Below, piece by piece: positions 9,988 to 56,800 of a DNA stretch of 64,000 bases. The stretch spans positions 54,291 to 118,290 of the forward strand of contig JAFUYT010000026.1 in assembly GCA_017470425.1 (NCBI GenBank). Direction: 5' to 3'. The first letter of the stretch is position 1, and each line of letters begins with the position of its first letter. The translations under genes and the position numbers were made by a program. Under the pieces are notes generated by a model, which worked only from the letters and a program-made list of their open reading frames with translations, had not been told where the DNA came from and did no database searches. This DNA comes from Bacteroidaceae bacterium. Lineage in GTDB: Bacteria > Bacteroidota > Bacteroidia > Bacteroidales > Bacteroidaceae.

Positions 9988-10096
9988 AACTCGAAGAGCC
10001 AACAGTCGAAATGCCGAAATATCGATATATCGATACATCGACATGACAAAAGAATTAAATTGTAAATTGTAAATCGTCAAATCATCAAATAGAATA

Positions 10097-12133: not shown

Positions 12134-15052
12134 TTATAGGCTCGCGAGTGTCTCGCGGATGGAGGCGATCTTCTGCTGGGCATCGGCCTGCTTCTTGCGC
12201 TCCATCTCAACGACGGCGGCGGGGGCGTTCTGCACGAAGCGTTCGTTGCTGAGCTTCTTCTCGATAGAAACGAGGAAGCTTTCGATGCGCTGGAGCTCGC
12301 CTTCGAGCTTCTTGCGCTCTGCCTCCACATCGATGAGGTCGCCGAGAGGTACGGCATACTCATTGGTACCGATGAGGAAGCTGACGCTGCCCTTGGACTT
12401 CTCCGCGACAACGTTGACAGCAGAGAGGTTGGCCATCTTCATGAGGGCATCCACGCCGCTCTGCGGCAGCGGGTGCTGGTCGGCGGCATCCACGACTTCG
12501 AGCGTGAGTTTCTCTTTGGGAGCGATGTTCTTCTGCGAGCGCACGGCACGGACGTTGGTGACGATCTCCTTCAGTTCATCCACGGCGGCGCAGAGCTGCT
12601 GGTCGTACTCTGTGGAGGCGGCCACATGCAGCTCGGAGCGCATGATGCTCTCGCCCGGCTGGCGGTCGTAGAGGGCCTGCCAGAGTTCCTCGGTGATGAA
12701 GGGCATGAAGGGGTGCAGCATCTTCAGCAGCACCTCGAAGAACTGGAGCGTCGCATCGTAGGTGGCGCGGTCTATGGGTTGCGGCTTGCCATCCACGTAG
12801 GCAGGCTTGATCATCTCAAGATACCAGCTGGAGAACTCGTCCCAGAAGAGCTTATAAACGGTCATGAGGGCTTCGGAGAGGCGGTACTTCGAGAAGTCGT
12901 CGGCCAGCTCCTCGGCGGCGAGGCGCAGCTTGGCGGCGAACCAGTTGGTGGCAAGGGAGGCCCCGCTCCCCGCTCCCCCCGTGGGGGGAAGAGCCGCCGA
13001 GCCTATGTTATCTTTTCCTCCAGAGGATAGGGAATCCTCCCCCCCACGGGGGGAGTTAGAGAGGGGCTGTACCTCCCACCCCTTGACCAATCGGAAGGCG
13101 TTCCAGATCTTGTTGTTGAAGTTGCGACCCTGCTCGCAGAGGCTCTCGTCGAAGAGGATATCGTTGCCGGCAGGGGCACTGAGCATCATACCCATGCGGA
13201 CACCGTCGGCACCGAAGCGGTCGATGAGGTCGAGCGGGTCGGGGCTGTTGCCCAGAGACTTGGACATCTTGCGGCCGAGCTTATCGCGCACGATACCTGT
13301 GAAATAAACGTGCTTGAACGGCATCTTGCCTTCGTACTCATAGCCTGCCATGATCATGCGGGCCACCCAGAAGAAGATGATGTCCGGGCCTGTCACCAGG
13401 TCGGCGGTGGGGTAGTAATACTTGATTTCCTCGTTGCCGGGGTTGCGGATGCCGTCGAAGAGGCTGATGGGCCAGAGCCATGAGCTGAACCAGGTGTCGA
13501 GGGCGTCCTCGTCCTGACGCAGGTCGGCAAGCTGCAGGTCGGCCTTGCCGCTCTTCTCGCGTGCCAAGGGCAGGGCTTCGTCGATATTCATGGCCACGAC
13601 GAAATCCTCCATGGGGAAGGTCCATTCGTCGCCCAGACGGGAGAGCTGCTCGGGCTTGAGGCTGCGGTTGCAGCTCACCTCACGTGCCTTGGCCAGGGCC
13701 TCACGCTCGTCTGCCGCCTGCACACGGCCTTCTGTGGCGTAGTAGTAGGCAGGGATGCGATGACCCCACCAGAGCTGGCGGCTGATGCACCAGTCCTGGA
13801 TATTGGAGAGCCAGTTCTTGTACGTGTTGACGTACTTCTCAGGATAGAAGCGCAACTCGCCGTTCAGCACCGGCGGGAGAGCGATGTCAGCAAAGTGCTG
13901 CATCCGCAGGAAGAACTGCAGACACAGACGCGGCTCCACAGCCGTATCTGGGTTGCGCTCGGAATAGCCGACCTTGTTGTCATAGTCTTCCACCTTCTCC
14001 ATCAGCCCGGCAGCTTCCAAGTCGATAGCAATCTGTTTGCGGCAGACCATGCGATCCATGCCCACGTAGAGCGGGCTCTCGTCGGAGATGGTGGCATCCG
14101 GGTTGAAGATGTCGATGGTCTCCAGGTGATGGGTCTTGCCGAGCATGTTGTCGTTCTTGTCGTGAGCAGGTGTCACCTTCAGACAGCCTGTACCGAACTC
14201 GATTTCCACGTAACGGTCCTCGATGACAGGTATCTCACGCCCCACGAGCGGCACAATCACCTTACGCCCCTTCAGCCACTGGTTCTTCGGATCCTTGGGG
14301 TTGATGCACATGGCCGTATCACCCATGATGGTCTCGGGGCGCGTGGTGGCCACGACGGCGTAATATCCTTTCTGGTCCTTATGAATCACGTTGCCGTCGG
14401 CTTTCAACGCCTCCTCGTTGTCCAGACGTTCAAGACCTACGACATAATACTTTAAGTAATACAGCTTCGACTTCTCTTCCTTATAGACCACCTCCTCGTC
14501 GCTGATGGCCGTCAGCGCCTTGGGGTCCCAGTTGACCATGCGGACATCGCGGTAGATGAGGCCCTTGCGGTAGAGATCGACGAAGACGCGGATGACGCTC
14601 TCGCTGCGGGGCTCGTCCATCGTGAAAGCGGTGCGGTCCCAGTCGCAGGAGCAACCCAGCTTGCGTAGCTGCTTGAGGATGATGCCGCCGTGCTCCTCGG
14701 TCCATGCCCAGGCGTGCTTGAGGAACTCTTCGCGGGTGAGGTCAGTCTTCTTGATGCCCTGCTCTGCGAGCCGTCTGACCACCTTCGCCTCGGTGGCGAT
14801 GCTGGCGTGGTCGGTGCCCGGCACCCAGCAGGCGTTCTTGCCCTCCATGCGGGCGTGGCGCACGAGGATATCCTGAATGGTCTCGTTCAGCACGTGTCCC
14901 ATGTGGAGAACACCCGTCACGTTGGGGGGCGGGATGACGACGGTGTAAGGCTCGCGGCCGTCGGGCTTCGAGCTGAACAGCTTGTTATCTAACCAGTACT
15001 GGTACCATTTCCCCTCCACTTCGGAGGGAGAATACTTACTACTTATTTCCAT
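12134..15052 (-). CDS. valS: Valine--tRNA ligase
   Basis: 972 aa with a HIGH-type motif (VLHMGHVLN), a KMSKS motif (RKMSKSLGN) and a C-terminal coiled coil. It contains an in-frame repeat-element insertion (see 12959-13067). Confidence 0.96.
12959..13067. mobile_element. MITE-like palindromic element (about 110 bp) inserted in frame within valS
   Basis: Near-identical to 15515-15623. Imperfect terminal inverted repeats of about 30 bp each contain CCCCCC-GT/AC-GGGGGG hairpins. It is translated as [29 protein letters not shown]. Confidence 0.8.
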
Positions 15053-15055
15053 ATA

Positions 15056-15943
15056 TTATTCTTGTTTCTTTGCTTCGTTCCAAATCTCATCCATCTCAGC
15101 CAGTGTCATCTCGGTGAGCGGCTTGCCGATGCGGATGCTGTGCTCTTCCAGGTAGGTGAAGCGGCGGATGAACTTGCGGTTCGTGAGTTCCAGGGCGTTG
15201 TCGGGGTTGAGCTTGTAGAGGCGTGCGGCGTTGATGACGGCGAAGAGGAAGTCACCCAGCTCCTGGGTGCTCTTCTCCTTGTCGTCGCGGTTCAGTTCCA
15301 CCTCCAGCTCGGCCAGCTCCTCGTGTACCTTATCCCACACCTGCTCGCGTGTCTCCCAGTCGAAGCCCACGCCGCGGGCCTTGTCCTGGATGCGGTAGGC
15401 CTTGATGAGTGAGGGCAGGGCATCAGGTACACCGCTGAGCACACGCTTGTTGCCGTCTTTCTCCTTCACCTTCAGCTGTTCCCAGTTCTTGAGAACCTGA
15501 TCCACGGAAGGGGCGGCCCCGCTCCCCGCTCCCCCCGTGGGGGGAAGAGCCGCCGAGCCTGTGTTATCTCTTTCTCTATAGGATAGGGAGTCCTCCCCCC
15601 CACGGGGGGAGTTAGAGAGGGGCTTTGGTGGATACACATGCGGATGCCTGTAGATCAACTTATCGCAGAGCTTGTTGCAGACGTCGGCGATGTCGAAATC
15701 GCCCGTCTCGGAGCCGATCTTGGCGTAGAAGACGATGTGGAGGAGCACATCGCCGAGCTCCTTGCAGATCTCCGCCTTGTCGTCGCGGATGAGGGCGTCG
15801 GCCAGCTCGTAGGTCTCCTCAATGGTGTTCGGACGCAGGCTTTCGTTGGTCTGCTTGCGGTCCCACGGACACTTCTCGCGGAGGTCATCCATGATGTCGA
15901 GTAGCCGCCCGAACGCCGCTATTTTTTCTTCTCGTGTATGCAT
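15056..15943 (-). CDS. mazG: Nucleoside triphosphate pyrophosphohydrolase MazG
   Basis: MazG motifs (CPWDRKQT, EETYELADAL) and a tandem MazG-domain layout. The start is moved to MHTREEK (ATG complement 15941-15943). The gene ends 3 nt before the valS start. It contains the same in-frame element. Confidence 0.88.
   Translation of the reverse strand: MHTREEKIAAFGRLLDIMDDLREKCPWDRKQTNESLRPNTIEETYELADALIRDDKAEICKELGDVLLHIVFYAKIGSETGDFDIADVCNKLCDKLIYRHPHVYPPKPLSNSPRGGEDSLSYRERDNTGSAALPPTGGAGSGAAPSVDQVLKNWEQLKVKEKDGNKRVLSGVPDALPSLIKAYRIQDKARGVGFDWETREQVWDKVHEELAELEVELNRDDKEKSTQELGDFLFAVINAARLYKLNPDNALELTNRKFIRRFTYLEEHSIRIGKPLTEMTLAEMDEIWNEAKKQE
15515..15623. mobile_element. Second copy of the MITE-like palindromic element, in frame within mazG
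   Basis: Same orientation and same reading frame as the valS copy. The arms are identical and the central roughly 30 bp diverge. Confidence 0.8.
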
Positions 15944-15962
15944 ACGTGTAAGAATTTGGGCG

Positions 15963-15970
15963 CAAAGGTA
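15963..15970 (-). promoter_or_regulatory. -7 promoter box TACCTTTG (minus strand) upstream of mazG-valS
   Basis: Plus-strand CAAAGGTA, 20 nt upstream of the mazG ATG. Confidence 0.5.
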
Positions 15971-16157
15971 GTAATTTCTATTCAAATACGCGTCAAAAAC
16001 GGCCATCATTTTTCGTGCAGAGTGTAATGGAGAATAATTTTCTGCGAAAGCACGGTAAATCCCATCCTCGCGTAAAACGGTTCTCCCTTTTTCCTGTTAT
16101 TGTAGTTTTGTTTTCTTTCTTTGTAATTGATGCTTGGAAGATATGCCTAAAAGTCCG

Positions 16158-20467: not shown

Positions 20468-21759
20468 CTTTGTATCCTTTTGAGCGCCTCGCGCATCCGC
20501 TCCTCCTTGGCGCAGAGCGAGATACGGATGTAGCGGGCGCCGTTGCTGCCGAAGATGAAGCCGGGGGTGATGAAGACGCGTGCCCCGTGGAGCACGCGCT
20601 CCGTAAGCACCTCGACATCGGCGTAGGCATCGGGGATGCGGCCCCACAGGAACATTCCCGTCTGTGCCGGGTCGAAGGTACAGCCCAGCGCTGTCATGAT
20701 TTCCTCGGCGATGTGGCGCCGGCGTCCGTAGGTGACCTCGTTCATCTCGTGGTGCCACTCCTCGCTGTTCGCCGTCAGCGCCTCGGCGGCAGCCAGCTGA
20801 ATGGCGCGGAACGTGCCGTTCTCGACGTTCGTCTTCACCTTCAGGATCCATTGCACAAACTGCGCGTTGGTGCAGAGCATCGCCACGCGCCAGCCTGGCA
20901 TATTGTGCGACTTCGAGAGCGAGTTGAACTCGATACAGCAGTCCTTGGCGCCAGGCACCTGGAGAATGGAGAGCAGGCTCTGATCACTCTGATTATTCAG
21001 ATTACTCTGATTACTCTGATTACTCTGATTACTCTGATTACTCTGATTACTCAGATTATTCAGATTACTCAGATCACTCTGATGATTCTGAGGCCTGATA
21101 AAGCTATACGGATTATCATTCACCACCACGATGGCGTGGCGCTGCGCGAAGGCCACGAGCTGCTCGTAGGTCTCGCGGCGGGCGGGGGCGCCGGTCGGCA
21201 TGTGGGGATAGTTGGACCACAGCAGGCGGATGCGCTTACCCTCGGCGGCGCTCTGCTGCACGAGGGCCTCCAGCTGCTTGAAGTCGGGCTGCCAGCCGCC
21301 CTCGGCTGTGAGGTCGTAGTTGATGACCTCGGCTCCTAACAGGCGCGACAGCGAGGTGTAGGTGGGGTAGCCGGGGTTCGGCACCAGCACGCGGTCGCCG
21401 GGGTTCACGAAGGCCAGGGTGGCGTGCAGGATGCCCTCCTTGGAGCCGATGAGCGGCTGCACCTCTGTGGCTGGATCCAGTTCCACACCGTACCAGCGGC
21501 GGTAGAACGTGGCCATCGCCTGACGCAGCTCCGGCGTGCCCACCGTGGGTTGGTAGCCGTGGCCGTCGGCCTTGCGCGCCTCGCGGCACAGCACCTCGAT
21601 GGTATGCTCCGAGGGCGGCATATCGGGGCTGCCGATAGCCAGCGAGATGATGTCCTTGCCCTCGGCGTTCAGCTGTGCCACCTCCTTCAGCTTGCGGCTG
21701 AAGTAGTATTCCTGTACGAGCGAGAGGCGCTCGGCGGGTTCAAATGCTTTCTTTTCCAT
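20446..21759 (-). CDS. Class I/II PLP-dependent aminotransferase (aromatic/prephenate aminotransferase candidate)
   Basis: PLP-lysine motif SLSKSHNMPGWR and an aromatic-operon context. It carries a 36-aa in-frame microsatellite insertion. Confidence 0.85.
   Translation of the reverse strand: MEKKAFEPAERLSLVQEYYFSRKLKEVAQLNAEGKDIISLAIGSPDMPPSEHTIEVLCREARKADGHGYQPTVGTPELRQAMATFYRRWYGVELDPATEVQPLIGSKEGILHATLAFVNPGDRVLVPNPGYPTYTSLSRLLGAEVINYDLTAEGGWQPDFKQLEALVQQSAAEGKRIRLLWSNYPHMPTGAPARRETYEQLVAFAQRHAIVVVNDNPYSFIRPQNHQSDLSNLNNLSNQSNQSNQSNQSNQSNLNNQSDQSLLSILQVPGAKDCCIEFNSLSKSHNMPGWRVAMLCTNAQFVQWILKVKTNVENGTFRAIQLAAAEALTANSEEWHHEMNEVTYGRRRHIAEEIMTALGCTFDPAQTGMFLWGRIPDAYADVEVLTERVLHGARVFITPGFIFGSNGARYIRISLCAKEERMREALKRIQSLGSKAA
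20982..21089. repeat. 9-bp microsatellite, 12 units, in frame within the aminotransferase
   Basis: GATTACTCT-type units start every 9 bp from 20982 to 21081. They are translated on the minus strand as SNQ/SNL-type triplets (..SNLNNLSNQSNQSNQSNQSNQSNLNNQSDQS..). Confidence 0.9.
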
Positions 21760-24934: not shown

Positions 24935-25023
24935 GGAATGAAGAATCCTTCGAAATATCGAAATATCGAAATAACGAAATGCCGAAATAACGAAATATCG
25001 AGAATTAAGAATTGAAAACTGAA

Positions 25024-26247: not shown

Positions 26248-27583
26248 CTCTCACATAAATTACTCATAAATTAAGCCATAAATTATTCATAAATTAAAAG
26301 TTACATAAATTAGAAGATACACCAAGAGTAAATAATTCATGATCAATTCGTGATTAAATTCATGGATAATTCATGTAAAACATAAAACCTTCTCACACAA
26401 ATTACTCATAAATTAAGCCATAAATTATTCATAAATTAAAAGAAACACTTGAGATAATAATTCATGATCAATTCGTGATTAAATTCATGGATAATTCATG
26501 TAAAACATAAAACCTCTCTCTCACACAAATTACTCGTAAATTTAACCATAAATTACTCATAAATTAAAGATACAAATATATGAACCCTAAGGACTATTCA
26601 GATATTGTGTACAATGTAATTGGCGCAGCCATGAAAGTTCACAGCGAACTGAACTGGGGGCTATTGGAGCCGCTTTATACTGAAGCACTCCACATGGAAC
26701 TGGAAGAATGTGGCATCCCCAACGAAATGGAAGCCCATCTGCCATGCTATTACAAAGACAAGCAGATGAAGAAATCCTACCAACCAGACCTATCTGTCGA
26801 GGGGATCATTATTGAACTGAAATCCACGAGTGACCTGATTCCTGCACACCGGGCACAACTCTTCAACTATATGCGACTGACCAAGTCGCCCATCGGGCTT
26901 CTGATTAACTTCGGAAGAAAAAGCCTTCAAGGCGAACGATATGCCTATTTAGAAGAAACAAACGAATGTGTGCTTCTTGACCGAAACATGAATATGCTCT
27001 ATCCGGCCGACTCTGAACCGGACACCGATGACTATTGGAGATTCATGGAAGAGGAGCAGAGCTACATAAATAATCATTCATGATCCATTCAAGAAAAATA
27101 ATTCATGATCAATTCGTGATTAAATTCATGGATAATTCATGTAAAACATAAAAACTTCTCACACAAATTACTCATAAATTAAGCCATAAATTATTCATAA
27201 ATTAAAAGAAACACTTGAGAAAATAATTCATGATTAATTTGTGATTAAATTCATGGATAATTCATGTAAAACATAAAACCTCTCTCTCACATAAATTACT
27301 CATAAATTAAGCCATAAATTATTCATAAATTAAAAGAAATACTTGAGATAATAATTCATGATCAATTCGTGATAAAATTCATGGATAATTCATGTAAAAC
27401 ATAAAACCTTCTCACAAATTACTCATAAATTAAACCATAAATTATTCATAAATTAAAAGATACACTTGAGAAAATAATTCATGATCAATTCGTGATTAAA
27501 TTCATGGATAATTCATGTAAAACATAAACCTCTCTCTCACATAAATTACTCATAAATTAAGCCATAAATTATTCATAAATTTA
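26248..27583. repeat. AT-rich (about 24% GC) tandem array of 125-128 bp units (one 142 bp), interrupted by the GxxExxY gene
   Basis: Unit starts (TCACA[C/T]AAATTACTC) at 26251, 26393 and 26521, then the gene, then 27159, 27287, 27412 and 27537. Each unit holds 3x CATAAATT-type sub-repeats followed by 4x AATTCATG-type sub-repeats. Confidence 0.9.
26580..27083 (+). CDS. GxxExxY family protein (PD-(D/E)XK-like fold family)
   Basis: Signature GLLEPLYTEAL and a family-typical core (PDLSVEGIIIELKS, AHRAQLFNYMRLT, GLLINFG). 167 aa. Confidence 0.8.
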   Translation: MNPKDYSDIVYNVIGAAMKVHSELNWGLLEPLYTEALHMELEECGIPNEMEAHLPCYYKDKQMKKSYQPDLSVEGIIIELKSTSDLIPAHRAQLFNYMRLTKSPIGLLINFGRKSLQGERYAYLEETNECVLLDRNMNMLYPADSEPDTDDYWRFMEEEQSYINNHS

Positions 27584-27746
27584 ATTTTCCGCGGCCACCG
27601 CGACGACGAACCAGACAGACAACAACGCCCAGCGATTTCCGTGCCTTTGCGCACCCTGACCGCGACATTCCGCGGTCCCGATCAAACCAGATCAAAGTAC
27701 AAAACAATTTTTAATTCATTTATTTATTCACCAAATTCAAATCATT

Positions 27747-33580: not shown

Positions 33581-33646
33581 AAATTGAAAGAGATAAGGAC
33601 CATAGAGAGAGGAAGGAGACCCGGCCTGACGGCCGGGGCACTGCGG
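33581..33646 (+). repeat. 66-bp intergenic element, copy A (AAATTGAAAGAGATAAGGA...GACCCGGCCTGACGGCCGGGGCACTGCGG)
   Basis: Near-identical to 35062-35127. It contains the hairpin CCCGGCC-TGAC-GGCCGGG and is followed by 18-bp-type GC-rich tandem repeats (GGCCGGGGCGCTGSGGTT). Confidence 0.85.
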
Positions 33647-33700
33647 TTGGCCGGGGCGCTGCGGCTGGGCGGGGTGCTGCGGTTGGCCGGGGCGCTGGGG

Positions 33701-35002
33701 TTGGCCGGGGCGCTGGGGCGCAAGGCGACCAGGGTCCTGGGGCTCTTGGGGCTGATAGGGCTCGTGGGGCTCGTGGGGTGCTCTGCTGAGGTGGAGGAGC
33801 CGGTGACGGCGGAGGACACACAGGGGATGCCTGTGGAGGTCCGGAGCTCCGTGACCGCCTTCGAGGAGGTGGTCAGGGGGGCGGCGGCTGCGAAGGCGGA
33901 TGGGACCTGGCCTGACGGCCAGGGCACTGCGGCGGGACAGGGCACTGCGGCGGGACAGGGCACTGGGGCGGCTGGGGCTGCGGTGACACGGGCTTGGTTG
34001 CCGCCCAGCGGGTACTCGCTCTATGATGGCGCGGACAGCAAGACGATAGGCGTGCGCTTCACGCAGAACGGGGAAGAGCCGTTGCAGGGCTACTTCTTCA
34101 AGAGCAGCGGGCAGTGGCGCGTGAGTCTGCTGGAGGGCGCTGAACTGGCGGCTGAGACGTACTACCTCTATGGCTATATCCCCCACACTACGGGTATGTC
34201 GAGCGAGATCTCCTCGACGGTGACGCCCGGCGACAACAGCGCCTACAGCAGCAAGGCCGTGATGAAGCTCAAGAACGTGCCGACCGTCATGCCCTCGGAC
34301 CTCTGCGTGGTCATCGGGGCCAAGAACGGCAGAACGGACTACCGTGAAGCCTCCGACTACAGCGTCACGGGGCTGACGCGCGGAAACTTCGAGTATGTGG
34401 CCACTGCCACCTCGGGCGAGGGCACTGGCAACTATGTCTATATGCTCTTCGACCACCTCTACTCAGCGCTGCGCATCCAGATGAAGGTGCACTCCGAATA
34501 CACGGCGCTGCGCACCATCAAGCTGAAAGAGCTTCGTCTGCAGACCGCCACCGACGACGGCGCTGCAAAGGCGAAAACAGATATCACCGTCGCGCTGGCC
34601 GCCAACGGCACCGGCAGCGACCCCATCACCAGCGTCACCTTCACACCCGACGCGACAAGCGGCGACAGCGACGGCGTGGTCTTCACGTCGGGTGCAGGCC
34701 AGACGCTGACGACCGACTACAGCACGTTCCAGAGCCACTTCATGCCTCACGGCGTGACGAAGCTGCTGCTGACGAGCACCTACGACGTCTATGACAATAA
34801 CCGGACGCCAGAACACCCCGACGGCAATCTCGTCCGTCAGGACTGCCAAGCAACTAACGCCCTCGAGATCAGCAAGCTGTTTGACCGACAGACAGAAGCG
34901 AGACGGGGCTTCAGATATACCATTAACATCACCATCCGCCCGACATACCTCTATATGTTGTCGGAGCCGGATCTGAACAATCCGACGATGGAGGTGGAGT
35001 GA
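33701..35002 (+). CDS. Fimbrillin-like accessory lipoprotein D (start uncertain)
   Basis: No in-frame ATG lies before the lipobox. The TTG at 33701 gives (M)AGALGRKATRVLGLLGLIGLVGLVGCS. The track ORF starts at the TTG at 33569 inside the repeat element. The C-terminal motif RGFRYTINITIRP is reminiscent of a pilin core. Confidence 0.45.
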   Translation: MAGALGRKATRVLGLLGLIGLVGLVGCSAEVEEPVTAEDTQGMPVEVRSSVTAFEEVVRGAAAAKADGTWPDGQGTAAGQGTAAGQGTGAAGAAVTRAWLPPSGYSLYDGADSKTIGVRFTQNGEEPLQGYFFKSSGQWRVSLLEGAELAAETYYLYGYIPHTTGMSSEISSTVTPGDNSAYSSKAVMKLKNVPTVMPSDLCVVIGAKNGRTDYREASDYSVTGLTRGNFEYVATATSGEGTGNYVYMLFDHLYSALRIQMKVHSEYTALRTIKLKELRLQTATDDGAAKAKTDITVALAANGTGSDPITSVTFTPDATSGDSDGVVFTSGAGQTLTTDYSTFQSHFMPHGVTKLLLTSTYDVYDNNRTPEHPDGNLVRQDCQATNALEISKLFDRQTEARRGFRYTINITIRPTYLYMLSEPDLNNPTMEVE

Positions 35003-35061
35003 GACTGCACCCCCTCCCGGCCTCCCCAAGGGGAGGAGAGAGGAAGGTAAAAAGGAAAAGG

Positions 35062-35127
35062 AAATTGAAAGAGATAAGGAACATAGGTAAAGGAAGGAGA
35101 CCCGGCCTGACGGCCGGGGCACTGCGG
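35062..35127 (+). repeat. 66-bp intergenic element, copy B
   Basis: Matches 33581-33646 except for about 4 positions. It lies between the stop of gene D and the start of giant gene 1. Confidence 0.85.
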
Positions 35128-35230
35128 CGCGGGGCTGCAAAGATGACCAAGGCGGCCGGGGCTGCTAAGGCGGCCGGGGCACTGCGGCGCGGGGCTGCAA
35201 AGATGACCAAGGCGGCTGGGCTGTGGGGGC
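35111..35230 (+). repeat. 60-bp direct duplication that includes the giant-gene start codon
   Basis: CGGCCGGGGCACTGCGGCGCGGGGCTGCAAAGATGACCAAGGCGG occurs at 35111-35155 and 35171-35215. This gives two in-frame ATGs (35143 and 35203). Confidence 0.9.
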
Positions 35231-38200
35231 TGTTGTGGCTGTTGCTGCTGTGGCCGCTGGGATTGGCTGCGCAGATCAAGGTGGGTGGCAGCATTTACGG
35301 CGGTGGTAACATGGGCCAGGTGCACGGCAGCACGACCGTGACCGTGAAGGAAGGTGACCTGAACAAGGTGTTCGGCGGTGCGCGCATGGCCAACGTGGGC
35401 GGCAATGCCTACGTGAACATCGACGGCGCCCACGCCACCGGCTACACCGTCATCAACTATGTCTTCGGCGGTAACGACATCGCCGGCAACATCGGCACAG
35501 CCGAGGCTGTGGGCGAGGCTCTGCCCGCAGAACTCGAGGGCAACGCCGACGGCGTGGATAACACCTGGAACACCTATGTCCACCTCTCTTCTAAGATGAC
35601 GGATGCCGTCCCCGCCACCCTCGCCTCCGACAACCAGAAGACCTACATCGGTCAGCTCTATGCCGGCGGCAATGGTGATTACTTCTACGACTCCTCGACC
35701 GCGGACGGGAAGACCACACACTACATCTACACGAAAGATCCCCTCGAAGGCGGCACGCTTCTGGAGACCATCGTCACCGACGAGGGTGATGTGGGCTTCC
35801 AGACACCTCACTTATCCAAAGCCTACCTCGACATGCAGGGCGGCTCCATCGTGTATGCCTACGGCGGCGGCAACAAAGCCACTGTGACGGAGAAGACCGT
35901 CATCCACGTGGATAACCCCAGCGAGGTCGTGAACCACCTCTTTGTCGATGAGAACGGTGTGGAGGCTGCGTCGTCGGTCTATGACGATTATGAGACTTCA
36001 GAGCCCAAGACCCTCGCCGCCGGCTACACAGAACTGCTGACCAACACCCGCTTCAAGGAGGGCATGGGCATCAACCTCGGTTTCTCGCGACCGAGCAGCG
36101 GTGACTTCCAGGTGGGCCGTCTCTTCGGTGGTAACAACCTTGAGGAAATGGCTATCCGTCCGACGTGGAACCTGCAGAGCGGCAAGATCCGTAACCTATA
36201 CAGCGGTGGCAACAAGGGTGCGATGACATCTCCCGAGGGCCTGCTGCTGGAGATCCCAGCCACTTCTTCCATCGTCGTGGATAACCTTTTTGGCGGCTGC
36301 CGTATGGCCGACGTGCGACCGTCGGTGAACGGCGTCTATACGCCGACCGTGAACCTGCCCGGCTACTACTTCCCGAATGAGCTGTCTGCGCGCGTGCTCG
36401 TGCGCGGGGGCGATATTAATAATGTATATGGCGGTAACGACGTGACGGGCCAGGTCTATGGCGGCAACGCCGTCGGCGTCTATGCCACCATCCGTGGCGA
36501 CATCTACGGCGGTGGCAACGGCGACTACCCCTACACCGACAATGAAGACCTCCGGGAGAGTAGCATCTATGGTGACCTCTACTATTCCACGAGCGGCTAC
36601 ACCACGTCCTACGACGCGCTGAACGCCTTCCGTCCCAACGCCGAGCAGGTGTCCATCCGTGTGGCGGGCGAGACCCGTCCGACCATCATCAAGGGTAGTA
36701 TCTACCTGGGTGGTAACTGCGCGTCGCTGGCCACGCACAAGGAGAATCCGATGGTGGAACTGAAGATCGGTTCCAACGTGCTTGCCGACAATGTCTATCT
36801 GGGCAACAACGGCGCAGGCATGGTCGATAAGGACTTCCTGAAGCTCTATGCCGGCTACGTGGATGAGAATGATGAGTACAACGCCAGCGAGGGCACGAAG
36901 TTCAGCAGCCTGAACCTGCGCGGCAGCTCCGAGTTTGCCGAGTACATGGAGGGCGTGGCGATGAACCTGATGCCCGCCGTGGTCTTCGACAACACCGCCA
37001 ACGGCGACCCCGCCACCTATACGCCGAACTCGAGCTACATCGGCTCCTTCTTCTGCGGCGGTAACGTGGGCAGCATGGCCGTCGAGGGCAAGGAGACCTT
37101 CACCTTCGACGAGCAGTTGAATATCTTCAATAAACTTGTCGGCGGATGCAACAATGCCAACGTGGCGGCGAGCGAGTGGAACGCGGCCTACGAGGGCGGC
37201 GTCCTCGGCAGCAAGGCCGAGCGCGCCAGCTACACCGAGGGCGGCAAGATCAAGGATCGTCTGGAAATCAATCTGGAGAAGCTGACTATCACGCCGCTGC
37301 GCTGGAACGAGGAAATGACCTATCCCGTCTGGAATACCAACAAATTCGTCACCTACCAAGCCGTGGAGAACGGCACGACCCTGACAGCAGGCGAGACCTA
37401 TTATACCTCTGACAGTGGCGCAGGCGAGTTCACGGCCGTGGGCAGTGAAGTCGCCGACGGCACAAACTATTATGAGTTCATCAATGACTTCGTGCAGGTT
37501 TCCAGCAGTGCTGTCGATAAGGATGCGCGCCTGCTCGACGGCAACGTGTATGGCGGCTGCTACAACAGCGGCCACGTGAACGGTAATGTCATCATCAACA
37601 TCAACGAAGATTTGTTGAAGAAGGACGAAATCTTCGGCACGGGCATCAGTGATTTCTACGGCAGGGCAAAGTCGGGCGTAGATTTCGAGGGGCAGCGCGA
37701 CGACCTGATGGCCGTGGCCCTCGCCGTCTTCGGCGGCGGCTATGGTGCGGACACCGAGATCTGGGGCAGCACGACCGTGAACCACAACAAGGGCTACGCC
37801 TTCCAAATCTATGGCGGCGGCGAGGAAGGAGTCGTGGGCCGGAAGGTCGCCCACACCGATGACCACGGTGAGGTCACGCAGGAGTATGAGTTCAACCCTG
37901 CCTACAGCAGCACCGTGAACCTCAACGGCACCACGCCTGTCTATTCCTCCGACGGCACCGTCGAAGGTCTTGCCGAGACCGAGTATATCTACGGCGGCGG
38001 CAACGAGGGCGATGTCTGCGGCAACACCCTCGTCAACCTGGGTAACGGCCGCATCTTCGATGCCTTCGGCGGCGCCAGCGATGCCGACGTCCTCGGTCAC
38101 ACCGAGGTCTATATCGGTCGCCAGCCCAAGGGCGACGGCACCTACAAGGCCGGCTTCCCGTGGGTGCGTGACATCGTCTATGGCGGTAATGACTTCGGCG

Positions 38201-41200
38201 GCAAGATATGGGGCGAGTACGAGACGGGCTACGACTTCACGAAGCGCCTCCGCAACTTCAGCACCGACCGCGTCTCGCTGCATGGCACGCCGACCGCCGG
38301 TGCCCCGGGCCTGCTGAAGTCCTCGTCCTACGTCGAGTACCTCGAAGGTCGTGTCGATACCATCTTCGGCGGCGGCTACGGCTTCTATGACTATTCCAAC
38401 GAGACGCTTTATGGTGCCGGCAATTCCATGCCCGTTCAGGAGAGCGCCTTTGTCAACATTCGTCCTGTGACGCACGACCACAACCTCGTCAACTACGTCT
38501 TCGGCGGCGGCACGGGCTATCCCCGCAACCGCGTGGGCGACAACGCCCAGGATCGCAGTTACGTGCTCATCGACATCCCCGACGGCGTGGAGCGCTTCGG
38601 TGCGATGGAGGTCTTCGGTGCCGGAGCCTTCAACGGCCTGGGTATGGGCTTCACCAAGGAGGAGACCTTCGCCGCCGGCTTCAATCTGGACAACGCCTCC
38701 GCCGTCGTCGATCTGCTCCACGGACAGATAGGCAACGTCTATGGCGGCAGCTACAACGAGGGCAACACGCGCCGCACGGTCGTCAACGTGCCTGCGGCAT
38801 CTACCATCCAGGTCGGCCGCATCTTCGGCGGTGCCTATGGCACGCAGATCCTGCCGCCCTGTGACGTCTATGAGACCCACGTGAACTACTTGAACACGAG
38901 TGAGAACGCCCGCGTGAGCGCCATCTACGGTGGCAACAACAACGAGCGCCGCTCGCTCTACACCCATGTCAACATCTCCTCGCCCGTATGGTCCAACAAG
39001 GAGAAAGGCTATATGGCCAAGGTCTATGGTGCCGGGCGCGGTATCGACACTTGGTCGGAATACACCGAAGTGAACCTGCTCAGCGGCGCCAAGGTCTATG
39101 AGGCCTACGGCGGCGGCGAGATGGGTCACGTGCTCAATGCCGAGAGCGTACAGCGGTATATGCAGCTGTACCATGATACGCCCTCGTCACAAATCTCCCA
39201 TCAGGATCCCTTCTGGAGCCAGACCGGGAACTGGGTCGGCGGAACGGTCGGCGGTACGCTGATAGACGATGCCGATCTCCGTGACCGCTGGGATCGCGAG
39301 TGGAAGGATGCCTGGACGTTCGGCGATTACTATACGCCGACGGCGACGGACGCCGAAGATGCTGATGGCGACGGTGATACCGAAGAAATCTCTTTCACCG
39401 ACTATGCCACCAACGCTGCCACGAACCTCACCAACAGCCTGCAGGTGCGCACGGCCGAGCTGGACGAACGCGACTACAGCGGCTACGCTGACGACGACAA
39501 AGCACGTAACTATCAGAAATACAACACCAACGTCATTATCCACGAGGGAGCCTCTGTCGGGAACTACGCCTATGGCGGCGGCTATGGTGAGGTCGCGACC
39601 CACCTGAGCGGCGACACCTACGGCAACACCTATATCGCCCTGCTCGGCGGCTCCGTCACCAAGGACCTCTACGCCTCTGGTTCGGCTGGTAATGTCAACG
39701 ACCTCTTCGGCGTGGGTGCCTACAATGCCAGCACGAACCCCACCGGCTTCACAGCCACCGCCACGGCCTACGTGAAGGGCGGCACGTGCCGCAACGTCTA
39801 TGGCGGCGGATGGAAGGGCGATGTCGGAACCCACTCGGGCACCATCGCAGACGATCCCTCCGGTGACATCCCCGGCGAGACGCACGTCGTCATCGGCGAC
39901 CTCGCAGGCACCAGCTTCACCAACGGTATCCCCGCCATCCAGCGCAACGCCTATGGCGGCGGCGAGGGTGAGGATGAAGACGGCGGCGCCGTCTATGGCA
40001 CCACCCATCTGACCCTTAACAACGGCTACATAGGCTATGCCTACAATGCTGAGGGCAGCGATAACCCCAAGACCACAGACTTCGACGAGCGCTACGAGGA
40101 GAAGATCGAGGACGAGACCCGCACCATGCCCAACACGTGGCTCACGGAGGCTGGCTGTCTGTTCGGCGGCGGCTATACCGACAACAGCTTCGTCGATAAG
40201 ACGCAGGTGAACATTTATGGCGGTCACGTCCGCAACAGCGCCTTCGGCGGCGGCGAGGTGGCTCCCATCGGGCGCGGTGACATGAAGGAGAAGGCGGGCG
40301 GCAGCGACTATGAACTGAAGGGCATCTACCGTCCCGGCAAGACGCTGGTCAAGATGTTCGGCGGTCATGTTCATCAGAACGTCTTCGGCGGCGGCCGCGG
40401 CTTCGACAACCTGGCCCGCGTCGGCTCGCTCCACTGTCCCGGCTACATCTTCGGACAGACGGAGGTGCGCATCCACGGCGGCGAGATCGGCACGGCTGAG
40501 GGCGTGGAGGACGGCGACGGCAACGTCTTCGGCGGCGGCGACGTAGGCTTTGTGTATAGTGCCTACGAGAATCCCGACGGCAGTTTTGCTCAGGGTAAGA
40601 AAGACGGTGTCAGATACGACGGCATCTACCAGGGCTACTATTACAAACACAATGGAGAGGATTTCGTAACCCTCACTGTAGATAGGGATGAAGACGGTGT
40701 AGCAGATACAGACGGTGAAGGGAACCAGATCAAAGAGCGCCAGTTCACCGAGGACTGCAAGGTGCTCGTCGAGCCCAACATGAAGGTCATCACTCCCGTC
40801 ACCATCAACGGGCACAGCTATGAGCCGGGCGCCTTCGTACCCATTGCCGACCTGAATACGCTGAAGAACAAGACACTGGATGCTTCCACCTGGGAGTGCC
40901 TGGATCCCACCGGCATCATCATCCATAACGCCGTCTTCGCGGGCGGTAATATGCCTTCGGGCTCAAAGGCCACCAGCGCCAACACCGCCTCAGTCTATGG
41001 CAACGCCACCGCTTCGGTAGAAGACATCTTCCACCGCGACATGATCACGCTCGGTACCCGCCACACCGGCGGTCTCTACGGCGATGGCAACCTGACCCTC
41101 GTGGATGGTTACCGCGAACTGAACATCACCAACTACGGCACCGACTACTACAGTATCGCTCAGGAAATCAGCATCGGCGACTATCATAACCTGCCCGACC

Positions 41201-53800: not shown

Positions 53801-56800
53801 AACGGCAATGTGCAGTGGCAGATCTATAATGCCGACATCACCGACTTCTACGGTGGTGGTGTCAACGCCGACAAGCCCGTGACAGGCAATATCACCATCG
53901 ACATCACGGGCAGCCACGTGGGCACCTTCTGCGGTGGCCCGAAGTTCGGCAACATGGCCACGGGCAAGGAAGTCACCACCCGCGCCGTGGGATGCACCTT
54001 CGACTACTTCTTTGGTGCTGGCTACGGCGGTATCTCCTACAACCGTGTGAGAACGCAGGATGCTACCAGTCCTAATTTCAGCTCATGGCAAGGTAACTAC
54101 ACGGGCAATCGGGGTAAATACCTGTCGGGGAACAAGGGTGTGGCCACTGATTTCGACTATGAGTTCTTCGTGTGGTCAACGGGTGCTACGGGCGGCCGCT
54201 TCTACGTGAAGTACTCTTCGCTCTCTACAGCCCAGACCAAGAATGTCTCTTCCACGCTCACCGGTTGCCTGATCAATCGTCATTTCTATGGCGGCGGTAA
54301 GCTGGGTAATGTGGATGGTACAGCCACCTCAGTGCTCAACGGCTGCACCGTAGAGGGCAATGTCTTCGGCGGCGGCTATTCTGCCGAGCATCCTACGGTT
54401 CCCATCCGCTCGGGCGGCTTTGCGACGGTTCCTAAGATTGATACGAATGCCGGTGTGTTTGATATGGGTGAGATGACAGCCACGGAAGACTACACCCTCG
54501 TTGCGGGCACCCTGGTCAATAACCAGTCTGCCATCAACGCCACCGCCAAGACCATCATCACGGATGTCGATCTGAACTCGCTGGGCCAGGTGACCCATGC
54601 CGACCTCACCATCAGCGGCAATACCATTGTCCGCGGTAAGATCTTCGACGAGAATGGTGATATCATCGAAACGACTGGCGGAGTCTTCGGCGGAGGTGAT
54701 ATGTCGGCCGTCAATGGAAATACGAGGGTCGATGTCCAGAACACTGAAGACACGGAGGGCATTCTGAATGTCTTCGGCGGCGGTAATACGGCCGATGTTG
54801 TGGGTAACACCGAAGTGTTCCTGACGGCTGGTACTGTCCTTCAGGATGTCTATGGCGGCGGTAAGGGTCAGACGACCATCGTCGGCGGTGACGTCGTGGT
54901 GAACATCGGCACGAAGACTGGCGAATCAGCACCTTATACCTATACTGGCACGGCTACCGTAAACGGCAGCGTCTATGGTGGTAGTGCCTTTGGCGCGGTC
55001 AACACCACCGGCGGACAGACCGTAGTCAATCTCTATGGCTGCACGAGTGTCAGCAACGTCTATGGCGGCGGCTTGGGCCAGCTCGCAACGGGCACCCCAG
55101 GTGATCCCGGCTATGTAGCAGCCATCGCGGCGCAGAACTTCGGTAACACGTCGGTCAACATGGAGAGTGCTGCTGCGGAAAGTGCCACCGTGAAGTTCAG
55201 CAACGTGACAGGAGCCATCTATGGCGGCGCGAACGTCAACGGCGTACTGAAGCAGGATGCCACGGTGACGCTCCTCGGCGGCACCGTGGGCACGGTGCCG
55301 GGCGAGGGCGAACGTACGAAGGATGTCGTCTTCGGCGGCGGTAAGGGTGAACCTACGCTCGTCGAGGGCAACGTGACGGTGAATATCGGCACGAAGACAG
55401 GCGAAGTGTACGCTGGCAATGCCACTATCAACGGTAGCGTTTATGGCGGCTCGGCGCTGGGCAACACCAATGCTGAGAGCTCGTCGAGCTACCATACCGA
55501 CAAGACTACGACCGTCAACCTCTTCGGCGGCACCATCTACGGCGATGCCTACGGCGGCGGTCTCGGTCAGAAGAACAGCGTGAACGGCGCCATGAGCGAC
55601 ATCGTGTCCTACGTGGGCGGCGATGTCCTGGTGCTGCTCGACGGCGCCAAGATTACGGGCAACGTCTTCGGCTGCAACAACCTCAACGGTACGCCGAAGG
55701 GCCATGTGAAGGTCTGGGTGATGCGGACGAACAACATCACCAGCAACGAATACAAAGGCAACAGCGCGACAGCGCTGTCCGGCCGCACCACCTACGATGT
55801 CGCTGCCGTCTATGGCGGCGGCAACCAGGCGGACTATGACCCGACGGATGCTCACATTGTCTTAGACAAGGAAGATCCGAAATATGAGGAGAAGCTCGCC
55901 AATTTCAATGGAGCCTTCGCCGAGGTGCTCATCGAAGGCTGCGCCGAGACCAGCATTCAGTATGTTTATGGCGGCGGTAATGCCGCTGCCGTGCCGGCCA
56001 CGGAGATTACTATCAACAGCTGCTATATCATTGACCAGGTGTTTGGTGGCGGTAACGGTGCGGGCACGGGTAACCCGGGTGCCAATGTGGGCATCTATGA
56101 CAATAATGGTACGCCTACGGACTATGGCACAGGTATTGCTAAGACCAAACTCATTGGTGGCCAGATTCACTACGTCTATGGAGGTAGTAACACGCTGGGT
56201 AATGTGCGCGGCGGCACATCATTGGAGCGCAAGGAGTCCAACACGTGCGAACTGAAGATAGGAGAGATCTATGGTGCGGGACAGGTGGCGCCGATGGACG
56301 GCGATGTGAACATCGAGTTGGATTGTATGCCCGAGGAATTTGTCGAAGCTGTATATGGCGGTGCCAAGAACGCCACCATCAACGGCAACGTCAGTCTGAC
56401 GGTGAGAAGCGGTAAGTTCGGCCGCGTGTTCGGCGGCAACAACCTGGGCGGCAGCATCAACGGTTCCATTACGGTGAACGCCTACGAAGGAGGCTGCGAC
56501 CCCCTCATCATCGGTGAGCTCTATGGCGGCGGCTATAATGCTCCGTACTCTATTTATGGTTGTAATGACGATGACGAGGATGGCATCTGGACACCCAATG
56601 CCGAGGCCGGAGAGCCCCATGTCGTTCAGGATGCCGAGCATCCCGCAGTAGGAGTCTATGTATGGTCATGTACCTCTATCGGCAAGGTGTTCGGTGGCGG
56701 CTACGGTGCCACGGCTGATGTGGTCGGCAACACCCGTGTCTGGATTAACCTGCAGAAGGGTCGTGTGAACGAGGTTGAACAAGACCATATCGGCAAGATT

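Follow-up and report, generated by a model that had tools for sequence, protein, structure and literature searches.

The valS and mazG genes of the window, by which we mean the whole 64,000-nt stretch of DNA analyzed, both contain the same palindromic element, inserted in frame, and the two copies belong to a repeat family that is confined to one clade of rumen Prevotellaceae. We propose that the element is a 108-bp GC-rich doublet repeat that spreads in genes, with DUF559 as a possible partner, an explanation to which, taken as a whole, we assign a probability of about 0.7. The original prediction, of a peptide-coding, selfish palindromic repeat in Bacteroidota resembling the Rickettsia palindromic elements (RPEs), is supported by our results, since the segment is neither shared by orthologs nor limited to two copies exchanged by gene conversion between neighbors.

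The element of about 110 bp that had been described in both genes is present in both. Its segments had been located correctly, but the 109-nt span given for them included one flanking base; the exact unit, GCCCC...GGGGC, is 108 nt long in both copies. The features to which we refer are the following.

12134-15052, minus strand: valS host gene, encoding ValS (972 aa)
12960-13067, minus strand: element copy 1, 108 nt (36 codons), inside valS
12975-12988: arm core of copy 1, CCCCCCGTGGGGGG, pairing with 13040-13053
13040-13053: arm core of copy 1, CCCCCCACGGGGGG, the inverted partner, pairing with 12975-12988
15056-16009, minus strand: mazG host gene, encoding MazG (ORF of 317 aa)
15516-15623, minus strand: element copy 2, 108 nt, inside mazG
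15531-15544: arm core of copy 2
15596-15609: arm core of copy 2, the inverted partner

Read on the minus strand, the coding one, copy 1 consists of GCCCCTCTCTAACT, an arm, the center, an arm and AGCGGGGAGCGGGGC, and the conceptual translation of each full copy is 36 residues long. Alignment of the two copies yielded eight mismatches, all within the central ~32 nt, with the rest identical and a sharp loss of identity beyond both outer ends, in agreement with the identical arms and divergent ~30-bp center originally reported. Also as reported, both copies lie on the same strand and in the same reading frame, within unbroken ORFs. Counting its complement as well, the 14-mer CCCCCCGTGGGGGG is present four times in the window, always within the two copies, compared to 0.05 occurrences expected by chance. 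A long hairpin is predicted for each copy, with a dG between −64 and −69 kcal/mol and a z between −3.9 and −4.9; none of 200 shuffled sequences was as stable. Matches of the element in Rfam were to microRNA precursors and fell below threshold (31 bits, where the gathering score is 72); we rejected them as a consequence of the generic hairpin shape. No DUF559 gene and no other arm families were found within the window itself.

Both copies occupy positions between protein domains, as had been proposed from the sequence. In ValS the insert covers residues 663-698, between the Pfam domains tRNA-synt_1, which ends at 634, and Anticodon_1, which begins at 704, and thus separates the catalytic from the anticodon-binding domain. 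In MazG, for which the true start is probably at position 15943 because homologs begin at MHTREEK, Pfam places the insert in the linker just past the first MazG domain and well ahead of the second, PRA-PH-like, domain. Conservation of the frame suggests that the insert is translated as part of the host protein. An AlphaFold2 model of MazG built with 90 close homologs was too poor to use (mean pLDDT 43), with the insert appearing as coil at the lowest confidence (24-28). The description of both host genes as essential does not hold in general for mazG.

Orthologs with 73-83% identity lack the element, and in its place the native loop residues FGPEAERIEKGEIT and KGWEVADGEQPEAAR are seen in most of 120 MazG homologs and at eight mazG-valS loci that are syntenic in related Prevotellaceae. 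The idea of an insertion therefore stands insofar as the element is foreign to the orthologs, but comparison with them indicates that it takes the place of ~10-13 native loop residues in ValS and MazG and is not a clean addition. A metagenome scan for a near-identical empty allele returned one close relative (L115, 93% amino acid identity), whose allele was filled, and it yielded no clean empty site at high identity. The MazG protein of the window has no exact match on record; a 99% relative (P0002) is represented by two contigs, each with both copies.

The element is far from being restricted to this locus. A first scan found complete elements at 34 loci beyond the two window copies, and after a second scan the count stood at 56 for distinct full elements and at 94 for solo arms, all from Prevotellaceae/Bacteroidales metagenome-assembled genomes (MAGs) from the rumen, with at least 15 rumen Prevotellaceae MAGs bearing elements; except for those of E. 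coli, all data in this study are MAGs or metagenome contigs. Long open frames contained 52 of the 56 full elements (93%), compared to 79.5% of 2080 random windows (p = 0.006). The in-frame hosts belong to about 25 unrelated housekeeping gene families, whose products include AsnB, PFL, AcrB, TruA, Lpd, PheT, UvrB, PurL, IspG, CbiD/J and GH97 in addition to ValS and MazG. In 1.3 Mb of sequence around mazG from 160 Prevotellaceae loci, C-run/G-run hairpins were clustered in a few lineages and were not Prevotellaceae-wide, and no copy of the element was found on viral contigs. A peptide-profile census of a 5.8-billion-protein set with a padded 44-aa profile gave one match among 7057 candidates, because a low-complexity profile of 44 aa cannot reach significance at such a database size.

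The two window copies share unique variants and are mutually the closest of all copies found, forming the only non-orthologous pair with centers more than 90% alike; one of them was probably derived from the other recently, by local copying or gene conversion over 2.5 kb. Their adjacency and close relationship are what would be expected if the segment were not mobile at all, being either an ancestral or functionally selected peptide module or the product of a one-off gene conversion between neighbors. We regard that reading as extremely improbable, and refuted, given that orthologs lack the element, that more than 50 further copies occur in unrelated genes and genomes, that copies are found in several reading frames and both orientations, and that the element evolves at an about neutral rate between strains. 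Strains 99.25% identical carry it at both sites, with substitutions amounting to 3.2% in the elements versus 0.6% in the flanks (p = 8 × 10−4). Most copies that share a genome have centers with less than 90% identity to one another, so current activity is low. Between species, orthologous copies were observed to be near-identical although the flanking codons had diverged by 20%; the neutral or faster rate of element change in close strains rules out purifying selection as what keeps orthologous copies identical. In a separate observation, the same loop was held by different element families in sister lineages.

Structurally, a doublet has a family-specific center of ~50 nt enclosed by two arms of ~30 nt in inverted orientation, each arm being a C6-loop-G6 hairpin with a GGAGAGGGGC-type tail, and the family is present both as such doublets and as solo arms (~33 nt, 11 codons). 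Total length is a multiple of three in 22 of 23 canonical elements and core length is 1 mod 3 in 48 of the 56 full elements; the four non-genic copies have lengths that are not multiples of three. The conserved unit is DNA and not peptide, because one and the same element is read in four or more modes of frame and orientation, one of which reads SPSPRSPRGGEG. Each doublet has two to four stop-free frames, about three on average, which is no excess over shuffled sequence (2.8 in elements versus 2.7 of 6), and the element is therefore not specially built to be open. Orientation relative to the host gene is biased, about 24 to 6 (p = 0.002, obtained with a previous count of 27 to 8). Neither a target-site duplication nor a direct repeat was found at the ends of 23 unique copies, and the flanks are instead inverted-symmetric (AAR before the element and YT after it), with R at −1 and Y at +1 in 23/23 copies each.

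The arms themselves point to a candidate enzyme. The DUF559 family is very widespread, has no assigned function and is represented in E. coli by YcjD. At ispG-cysS, an ORF of ~125 aa sits between perfect 33-44-nt inverted arms of the window-element family in RUG12444, Tb.RUG.375 and RUG14659, and core arms are also present in RGIG6660 and RGIG3292. Its matches to PF04480 (E = 1.1 × 10−30) and PDB 3hrl (E = 2.8 × 10−18) assign the predicted product to DUF559, a Vsr-like PD-(D/E)XK nuclease family; its match to NCBIfam PRK09767 was below that family's cut-off. A second DUF559 lineage has arms of another family and is found next to argG, in the cluster for arginine biosynthesis, between argG and argC in L291-L303 and between a GNAT gene and argG in L226, and RGIG3292 holds two enzyme-repeat pairs (L289 and L226). 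Across Bacteroidota and Proteobacteria, 31 of 70 DUF559 loci had flanking inverted arms scoring at least 18, a score that the best of 20 control window pairs reached at only 3 of the 70. Arm sequence shifts with the DUF559 lineage while the plan of a hairpin plus a G-box is retained. The DUF559 genes occupy conserved positions and none was seen multiplying, and many element-bearing MAGs gave no DUF559 match in a search by exact 8-mer peptides of MAGs that are incomplete. The link between DUF559 and the arms is one of association.

These data bear on how the repeat may move. The label "MITE-like" applied in the original prediction suits the small size, terminal inverted repeats and dispersal of the element, but it holds only loosely because there is no target-site duplication. 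A classical MITE would be an internally deleted IS derivative moved in trans by a DDE transposase acting on the ~30-bp terminal inverted repeats, and the dispersed small element without coding capacity of its own fits that description. We nevertheless consider this origin very unlikely: the ends have symmetric flanks in place of a direct duplication, solo arms are units in their own right, and just one longer unit, of ~470 bp, shares the termini, and it codes for DUF559 and no transposase. No parent IS with these termini was found, in a search directed at HUH and not systematically at DDE transposases. The bacterial MITEs ERIC, QMITE1 of Coxiella and those of Anabaena are likewise small, non-autonomous and inverted at their ends, and in some cases they lengthen or fuse ORFs of the host (PMC10969869). 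Those families usually have target-site duplications and IS relatives, and genic in-frame copies are exceptional in them, whereas in our family such copies predominate and neither a duplication nor an IS relative was found.

In architecture the family more closely resembles REP singlets and REPIN doublets than a MITE, while its outcome resembles that of Rickettsia RPEs. The REP/REPIN-RAYT system consists of hairpin singlets, spaced inverted doublets and a small enzyme gene at a conserved position bracketed by inverted repeats (Bertels and Rainey 2011; PMC3116915). Our family likewise has solo arms and doublets without target-site duplication, a bracketed small enzyme gene in a conserved place, repeats that co-vary with the enzyme lineage, and the possibility of two enzyme-repeat pairs in one genome. 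If it were a true REPIN, a RAYT/IS200-type HUH tyrosine transposase encoded elsewhere would move its hairpins via single-stranded DNA, with DUF559 unrelated and merely attracting or tolerating the arms; such a strand-specific mechanism would predict the orientation bias. We think this unlikely, since the gene that is truly bracketed by arms, repeatedly and across phyla, is DUF559, a Vsr-like PD-(D/E)XK nuclease and not an HUH tyrosine transposase. The arms also lack the GTAG/CGTC heads that characterize REP superfamilies (PMC3733652), and a tblastn search with RayT and IS608 TnpA gave no match in 1.05 Mb of arm-bearing loci, which is a weak test. The family further differs from REPs, which are extragenic, in having 93% of its doublets in ORFs, and its within-genome copy identity is low.

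Decay is seen in a deletion remnant (KPTGGAGSG) in P0017/L368 and in native ValS and CysS segments bracketed by solo arms. Terminal tandem duplications of 12 and 33 nt and a C-run deletion are slippage-type events, and in orthologous pairs high identity stops at the element edges, which fits recombination inside the arms. It is improbable, however, that such processes alone (hairpin-stimulated replication slippage, recombination in identical arms and uptake of foreign DNA), with the arms flanking DUF559 being transcription or termination signals or accidental accumulations, explain the whole. Slippage and recombination make no copies at new, unrelated sites such as the about 25 different gene families, and the placement of DUF559 between two inverted arms recurs across phyla with differing arm sequences, far above controls.

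We therefore return to a doublet repeat with DUF559 as its possible partner. We tentatively suggest, at somewhat less than even odds, that the arms are recognition sites of the DUF559 nuclease and that repair of its breaks by copying has spread the repeats. Breaks made by the nuclease and repaired with another copy as template would spread or exchange repeats and leave no target-site duplication; a PD-(D/E)XK nuclease alone cannot join DNA. Because doublet length is a multiple of three and two to four frames are stop-free, a copy landing in a tolerant gene loop would simply be translated, as a ~36-residue peptide rich in Pro, Gly and Ser, and the gene would survive, the same outcome as for RPEs. 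Copies would then drift at an about neutral rate, lose or gain whole codons, become solo arms when a deletion joins two C-runs, or yield to other families. A nuclease of related kind is I-Bth0305I, a Vsr-like PD-(D/E)XK homing endonuclease grouped with Vsr/DUF559 (PMC3424549). It shares the fold family of the arm-bracketed gene, and break-and-copy spread of its kind would likewise leave no target duplication and permit repeated use of one site. In contrast to that system, our family involves no intron or intein, its dispersed units lack the nuclease gene, and co-conversion of flanks was not seen.

A similar arrangement may exist in E. coli. The motif CCCCTCGCCCCTCTGGGGAGAGGGTTAGGGTGAGGGG, which has the hairpin-plus-G-box plan of arms flanking DUF559 genes elsewhere, lies 170 nt from the DUF559 gene ycjD, and E. 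coli genomes have a median of 18 occurrences each. This repeat may correspond to "Box C", which has a history beside envM/fabI. In E. coli the repeat is extragenic and does not cleanly enclose ycjD from both sides, whereas the window element lies inside genes. More speculatively, and with considerable doubt, DUF559/YcjD-family nucleases could be the partners of phylum-spanning bipartite GC-rich repeats (hairpin plus G-rich box), the Box C-like repeat included. They would then form a second, independently evolved partnership of the REPIN-RAYT type, with PD-(D/E)XK instead of HUH enzymes, that has colonized coding sequence in one rumen Prevotellaceae clade as exchangeable in-frame cassettes. Nuclease-triggered cassette exchange, if true, would account both for the different families in the same loop of sister lineages and for the near-identity of orthologous copies despite the divergence of their flanks.

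The closest functional parallel is with RPEs, palindromic sequences of about 100-150 bp in several families that lie in frame in unrelated housekeeping genes, are tolerated as an extra peptide and have no known transposase (Ogata et al. 2000, 2002; PMC10969869). The window family is likewise palindromic, at 108 bp with hairpin z-scores of about −4 to −5, and in frame in unrelated genes. It differs in having free-living rumen Bacteroidota as hosts instead of obligate intracellular Alphaproteobacteria, in its GC-rich C-run/G-run arms, solo arms as units and candidate partner gene, and in a genic fraction of doublets well above the roughly half reported for RPEs (PMC10969869). We liken the element to RPEs by features and not by sequence; because its host is a member of the Prevotellaceae, it is an analog of RPEs and not a member. 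Our literature searches found no description of such repeats in Bacteroidota, in line with the original remark that no such description was known, and the phylum is absent from a review of prokaryotic MITEs published in 2024.

For gut and rumen Bacteroidota, these findings imply the same outcome as in Rickettsia, at comparable or higher density, in free-living cells and in proteins that include aminoacyl-tRNA synthetases and central metabolic enzymes. To our knowledge, palindromic repeats that lie in frame within essential genes have been regarded for 25 years as peculiar to Rickettsia, and no enzyme that mobilizes them is known. Remodeling of protein loops by repeats is therefore not limited to reduced intracellular genomes. 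The inserts enlarge and diversify conserved marker proteins in MAGs and can cause errors in alignments, phylogenies and the typing of strains. DUF559, to which the arms lead, is a testable candidate enzyme, and with E. coli YcjD and structure 3hrl at hand, the movement of these repeats, the role of Box C-type repeats and the function of DUF559 become approachable in a model organism.

The window carries two copies of a GC-rich hairpin repeat, each with two inverted arms (~30 nt) around a family-specific centre.

Copies of the element in the window
12960-13067, minus strand: element copy 1, 108 nt, inside valS
15516-15623, minus strand: element copy 2, 108 nt, inside mazG

Both copies lie in intact minus-strand ORFs (ValS, 972 aa; MazG, 317 aa) and are read in the same frame, in agreement with the original prediction of one palindromic element inserted in frame in both genes. 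Across the region examined (12800-15800) they align without gaps, and all 8 mismatches fall inside the central ~32 nt, confirming the predicted identical arms and divergent centre of ~30 bp; similarity is cut off sharply at either outer end. Comparing all the other copies fixed the boundaries (GCCCC...GGGGC, 108 nt). Within the window, the 14-mer CCCCCCGTGGGGGG or its complement is found at four positions, all in the two copies (0.05 expected). Each copy is predicted to fold as an extended hairpin (-64 to -69 kcal/mol; z -3.9 to -4.9). An Rfam search with the element returned no family. Pfam domain placement agrees with the predicted insertion sites, between the catalytic and anticodon-binding domains of ValS and, in MazG, in the interdomain linker after the first MazG domain. 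Variants common to the two window copies occur in no other copy, and in no other non-orthologous pair do the centres agree by more than 90%; one is recently derived from the other by local copying or conversion.

The window contains several other repeats. Very large ORFs at 35000-41000 and 54000-64000 consist of dozens of degenerate 78-84-nt repeats ending ..N(V/I)(Y/F)GGG and resemble giant, repetitive proteins of the surface or adhesin type. Seven AT-rich 57-nt repeats (TCTCACATAAATTACTCATAAATTAAGCCATAAATTATTCATAAATTAAAAG), spaced ~123-142 nt apart in two clusters, occupy 26249-27591 together with a 239-nt repeat pair of 96% identity. About twelve tandem 9-nt units (CTCTGATTA) at 20960-21118 would encode a three-residue repeat if coding, GC-rich tandem repeats of 18 nt (GGGCACTGCGGYTGGCCG-like) form two blocks and have a third, related site (33618-33986 and 35099-35163), and an 8-nt unit (CGAAATAT and variants) forms short runs in two distant, intergenic-looking places (10007-10068 and 24935-25020).

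The insertions are lineage-specific, as had been proposed. Eight syntenic mazG-valS loci of related metagenome-assembled genomes (MAGs; 73-81% amino acid identity) lack the segment and have HPHVFGPEAERIEKGEITVDQV and KGWEVADGEQPEAARIATQWF at the element positions, and most of 120 MazG homologues are likewise without it. The element substitutes for 10-13 native residues and is not a clean addition; a search for a near-identical empty allele of the window sites found none. Two MazG database proteins, P0003 (411 aa) and P0040 (352 aa), contain long internal self-duplications that are probably assembly artefacts of their source metagenomes. Both element copies are present in two strains 99.25% identical to the window (L366 and L367), where 7 of 29 substitutions in 3876 nt fall within the 216 nt of the elements (3.2% versus 0.6% in the remainder; p = 8e-4); the inserts therefore drift at an approximately neutral rate once in place. 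In a 93% identical relative (L115), the arms of the MazG copy are decaying and there is a 6-nt indel.

The element is not restricted to these two neighbouring genes, a possibility that the original prediction had raised. A first scan, covering one genome per species and requiring a spacing of 35-65 nt between the two arm cores, recovered 34 loci, every one of them in rumen Prevotellaceae/Bacteroidales MAGs (goat, sheep, cattle, and deer), with at most 9 loci per MAG. With two exceptions, core length was 73, 76, 79, 82, 85 or 88 nt, and an open frame of 200-1300 codons surrounded every copy. Hosts identified by Pfam included asparagine synthase, SpoU methylase, pyruvate formate-lyase, AcrB, TruA, dihydrolipoamide dehydrogenase (two sites), agmatine deiminase (one gene with two copies), PheT, a TrmB-like methyltransferase, UvrB, a GltD-like oxidoreductase, a sodium:solute symporter/NanM protein, CbiD/CbiJ, a TonB-dependent receptor, SF1 helicase, PurL, a biotin-lipoyl protein, IspG, and GH97. 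A second, single-arm scan added at least ~70 Bacteroidales loci, along with at least ~20 chance matches in other phyla. De-duplicated, the two scans comprise at least 56 full elements and at least 94 solo arms (~33 nt), a dispersed, lineage-restricted, hairpin-forming repeat family with singlet and doublet architecture that resides overwhelmingly in frame inside housekeeping genes. Among the matches listed, 52 of 56 full elements (93%) lie in long open frames, compared with 79.5% of 2080 random 108-nt windows (p = 0.006), as do 72% of the 94 solo arms; core length is 1 mod 3 in 48 of the 56, total length is 3n in 22 of 23 canonical copies (p = 5e-10), and the four non-genic full elements have cores of 77, 112, 112 and 113 nt, none of them 3n.

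The coding-sense sequence of the canonical copy is R/GCCCCTCTCTAACT-CCCCCCGTGGGGGG-G AGGAYTC...centre...CTCTC-CCCCCCACGGGGGG-AGCGGGGAGAGGGGC/Y, with outer ends unequal by one base (14 versus 15 nt). Among the 23 canonical copies the flanking bases are a purine at -1 (23/23), A at -2 (18/23) and a pyrimidine at +1 (23/23); these flanks show inverted symmetry rather than a direct repeat, so the element lacks a target-site duplication. In some copies, terminal pieces of 12 nt and 33 nt occur in tandem. The remnant in the MazG orthologue P0017/L368 (AAG CCC/ACG GGG GGA GCG GGG AGC), a 27-codon deletion between C-runs, illustrates how a solo arm can originate, and solo arms bracket native protein segments in ValS (L223 and L260) and CysS (L027).

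The conserved unit of the element is DNA, not peptide. It is read in several modes: the commonest one, a second on the opposite strand and a further one that ends ...PPRGEREEG, with SPSPRSPRGGEG...PPTGGVREG probably another. At unique genic sites, the TAACT end comes first in ~24 cases and the reverse in 6 (counted by hand). Stop-free frames are in no excess over shuffled sequence (2.8 versus 2.7 of six), and compatibility with genes comes from 3n length and post-insertion selection, not special design. Conservation of frame and 3n length suggests that the inserts are translated; the predicted structure model was too poor to inform on the translated insert.

Orthologous copies in different species-level MAGs can be 98-100% identical over the whole element.

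Near-identical orthologous copies (identical positions)
asnB (L001/L014/L024): 115-116/117
truA (L007/L032): 111/111
gltD-like gene (L013/L030): 119/120

Codons flanking these copies are just 79-91% identical (p = 2e-9), and the high identity stops within 10-20 nt of the element; other orthologous pairs diverge as fast as their flanks or faster. Because the between-strain rate is approximately neutral, the identical sets seem to reflect elements newly arrived or exchanged at a fixed site, and not constraint. Some sites also differ in content between orthologues. In MazG orthologues otherwise ~80% identical (P0002-P0021; L039, L116, L115, and L368), the linker after RHPHVYPP is filled by palindromic, peptide-coding inserts of at least five unrelated families, and a 27-nt 5' flank is common at the DNA level to the window, L115 and L039, with inserts of different families. 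The ValS site in L039 is occupied by a different family, and two families share one position in agmatine deiminase (L009 versus L019), which suggests cassette-like turnover.

Element arms also bracket a small gene for DUF559, a Vsr-like PD-(D/E)XK nuclease family. In the MAG RUG12444, a ~470-bp unit between ispG and cysS (L211:4427-4897) encodes a ~125-aa DUF559 protein (PF04480, 1e-30; PDB 3hrl, 3e-18; E. coli YcjD model below cut-off) and is bounded by two perfect 33-44-nt inverted arms of the element family. There and at L234:2850-3330 and L027:5270-5810, the ispG frame stays open across one arm and joins DUF559 in an IspG-DUF559 fusion ORF, and the cysS ORF starts within the other arm, its start codon thus being supplied or displaced by the element. 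Tb.RUG.375 and RUG14659 share the arrangement, and core arms are present in RGIG6660 and RGIG3292 as well. In RGIG3292 another DUF559 gene (64% identical) sits with a GNAT gene on one side and argG on the other, and its arms are of a different family (core CCCCCCGAAGGGGGG); in relatives of this lineage the neighbours are argG and argC. A scan for DUF559 relatives yielded 80 loci (L285-L364) from Prevotellaceae, Paludibacter, Capnocytophaga, Flavobacteriaceae, Sphingobacteriaceae, and several Proteobacteria. Inverted arms scoring ≥18 surround the gene at 31 of 70 analysable loci, versus 3 of 70 in controls (best of 20 control window pairs), and a second repeat search verified them at four loci. 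Arm sequence varies with DUF559 lineage; the plan, a C-run/loop/G-run hairpin plus a G-rich box, is fixed. Our literature search found no paper tying DUF559 or YcjD to repeats.

In E. coli K-12 (ycjD-fabI, L365:16030-16840), the ycjD stop codon overlaps CACCCTCTCCCTGAAAGAGCGAGGGGG, and CCCCTCGCCCCTCTGGGGAGAGGGTTAGGGTGAGGGG lies ~170 nt beyond it on the fabI side. The latter motif, probably 'Box C', a repeat originally spotted next to envM/fabI, has a median of 18 occurrences per genome (5426 complete E. coli genomes); the chance of one of 18 copies falling within 200 nt of a given gene is ~0.002.

The element resembles Rickettsia palindromic elements (RPEs) in outcome and REPIN-RAYT systems, doublets of REP repeats with their HUH transposase partner, in organisation, and belongs to neither: its host, and probably its sequence, differ from those of RPEs, and it departs from REPINs in its apparent lack of an HUH transposase and in not being extragenic. 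No RayT/IS608-like gene was found in 1.05 Mb of arm-bearing loci, a weak negative, and a literature search found no description of such elements in Bacteroidota. DUF559 genes are confined to a few conserved gene contexts and so are vertically inherited, as RAYTs are. DUF559 is classed in reviews with Vsr and with a Vsr-like homing endonuclease (PMC3424549). We infer that the arms are recognised by DUF559, which drives their copying or exchange through break repair; such a mechanism would fit elements without target duplication, sites used more than once, and identity that ends abruptly.
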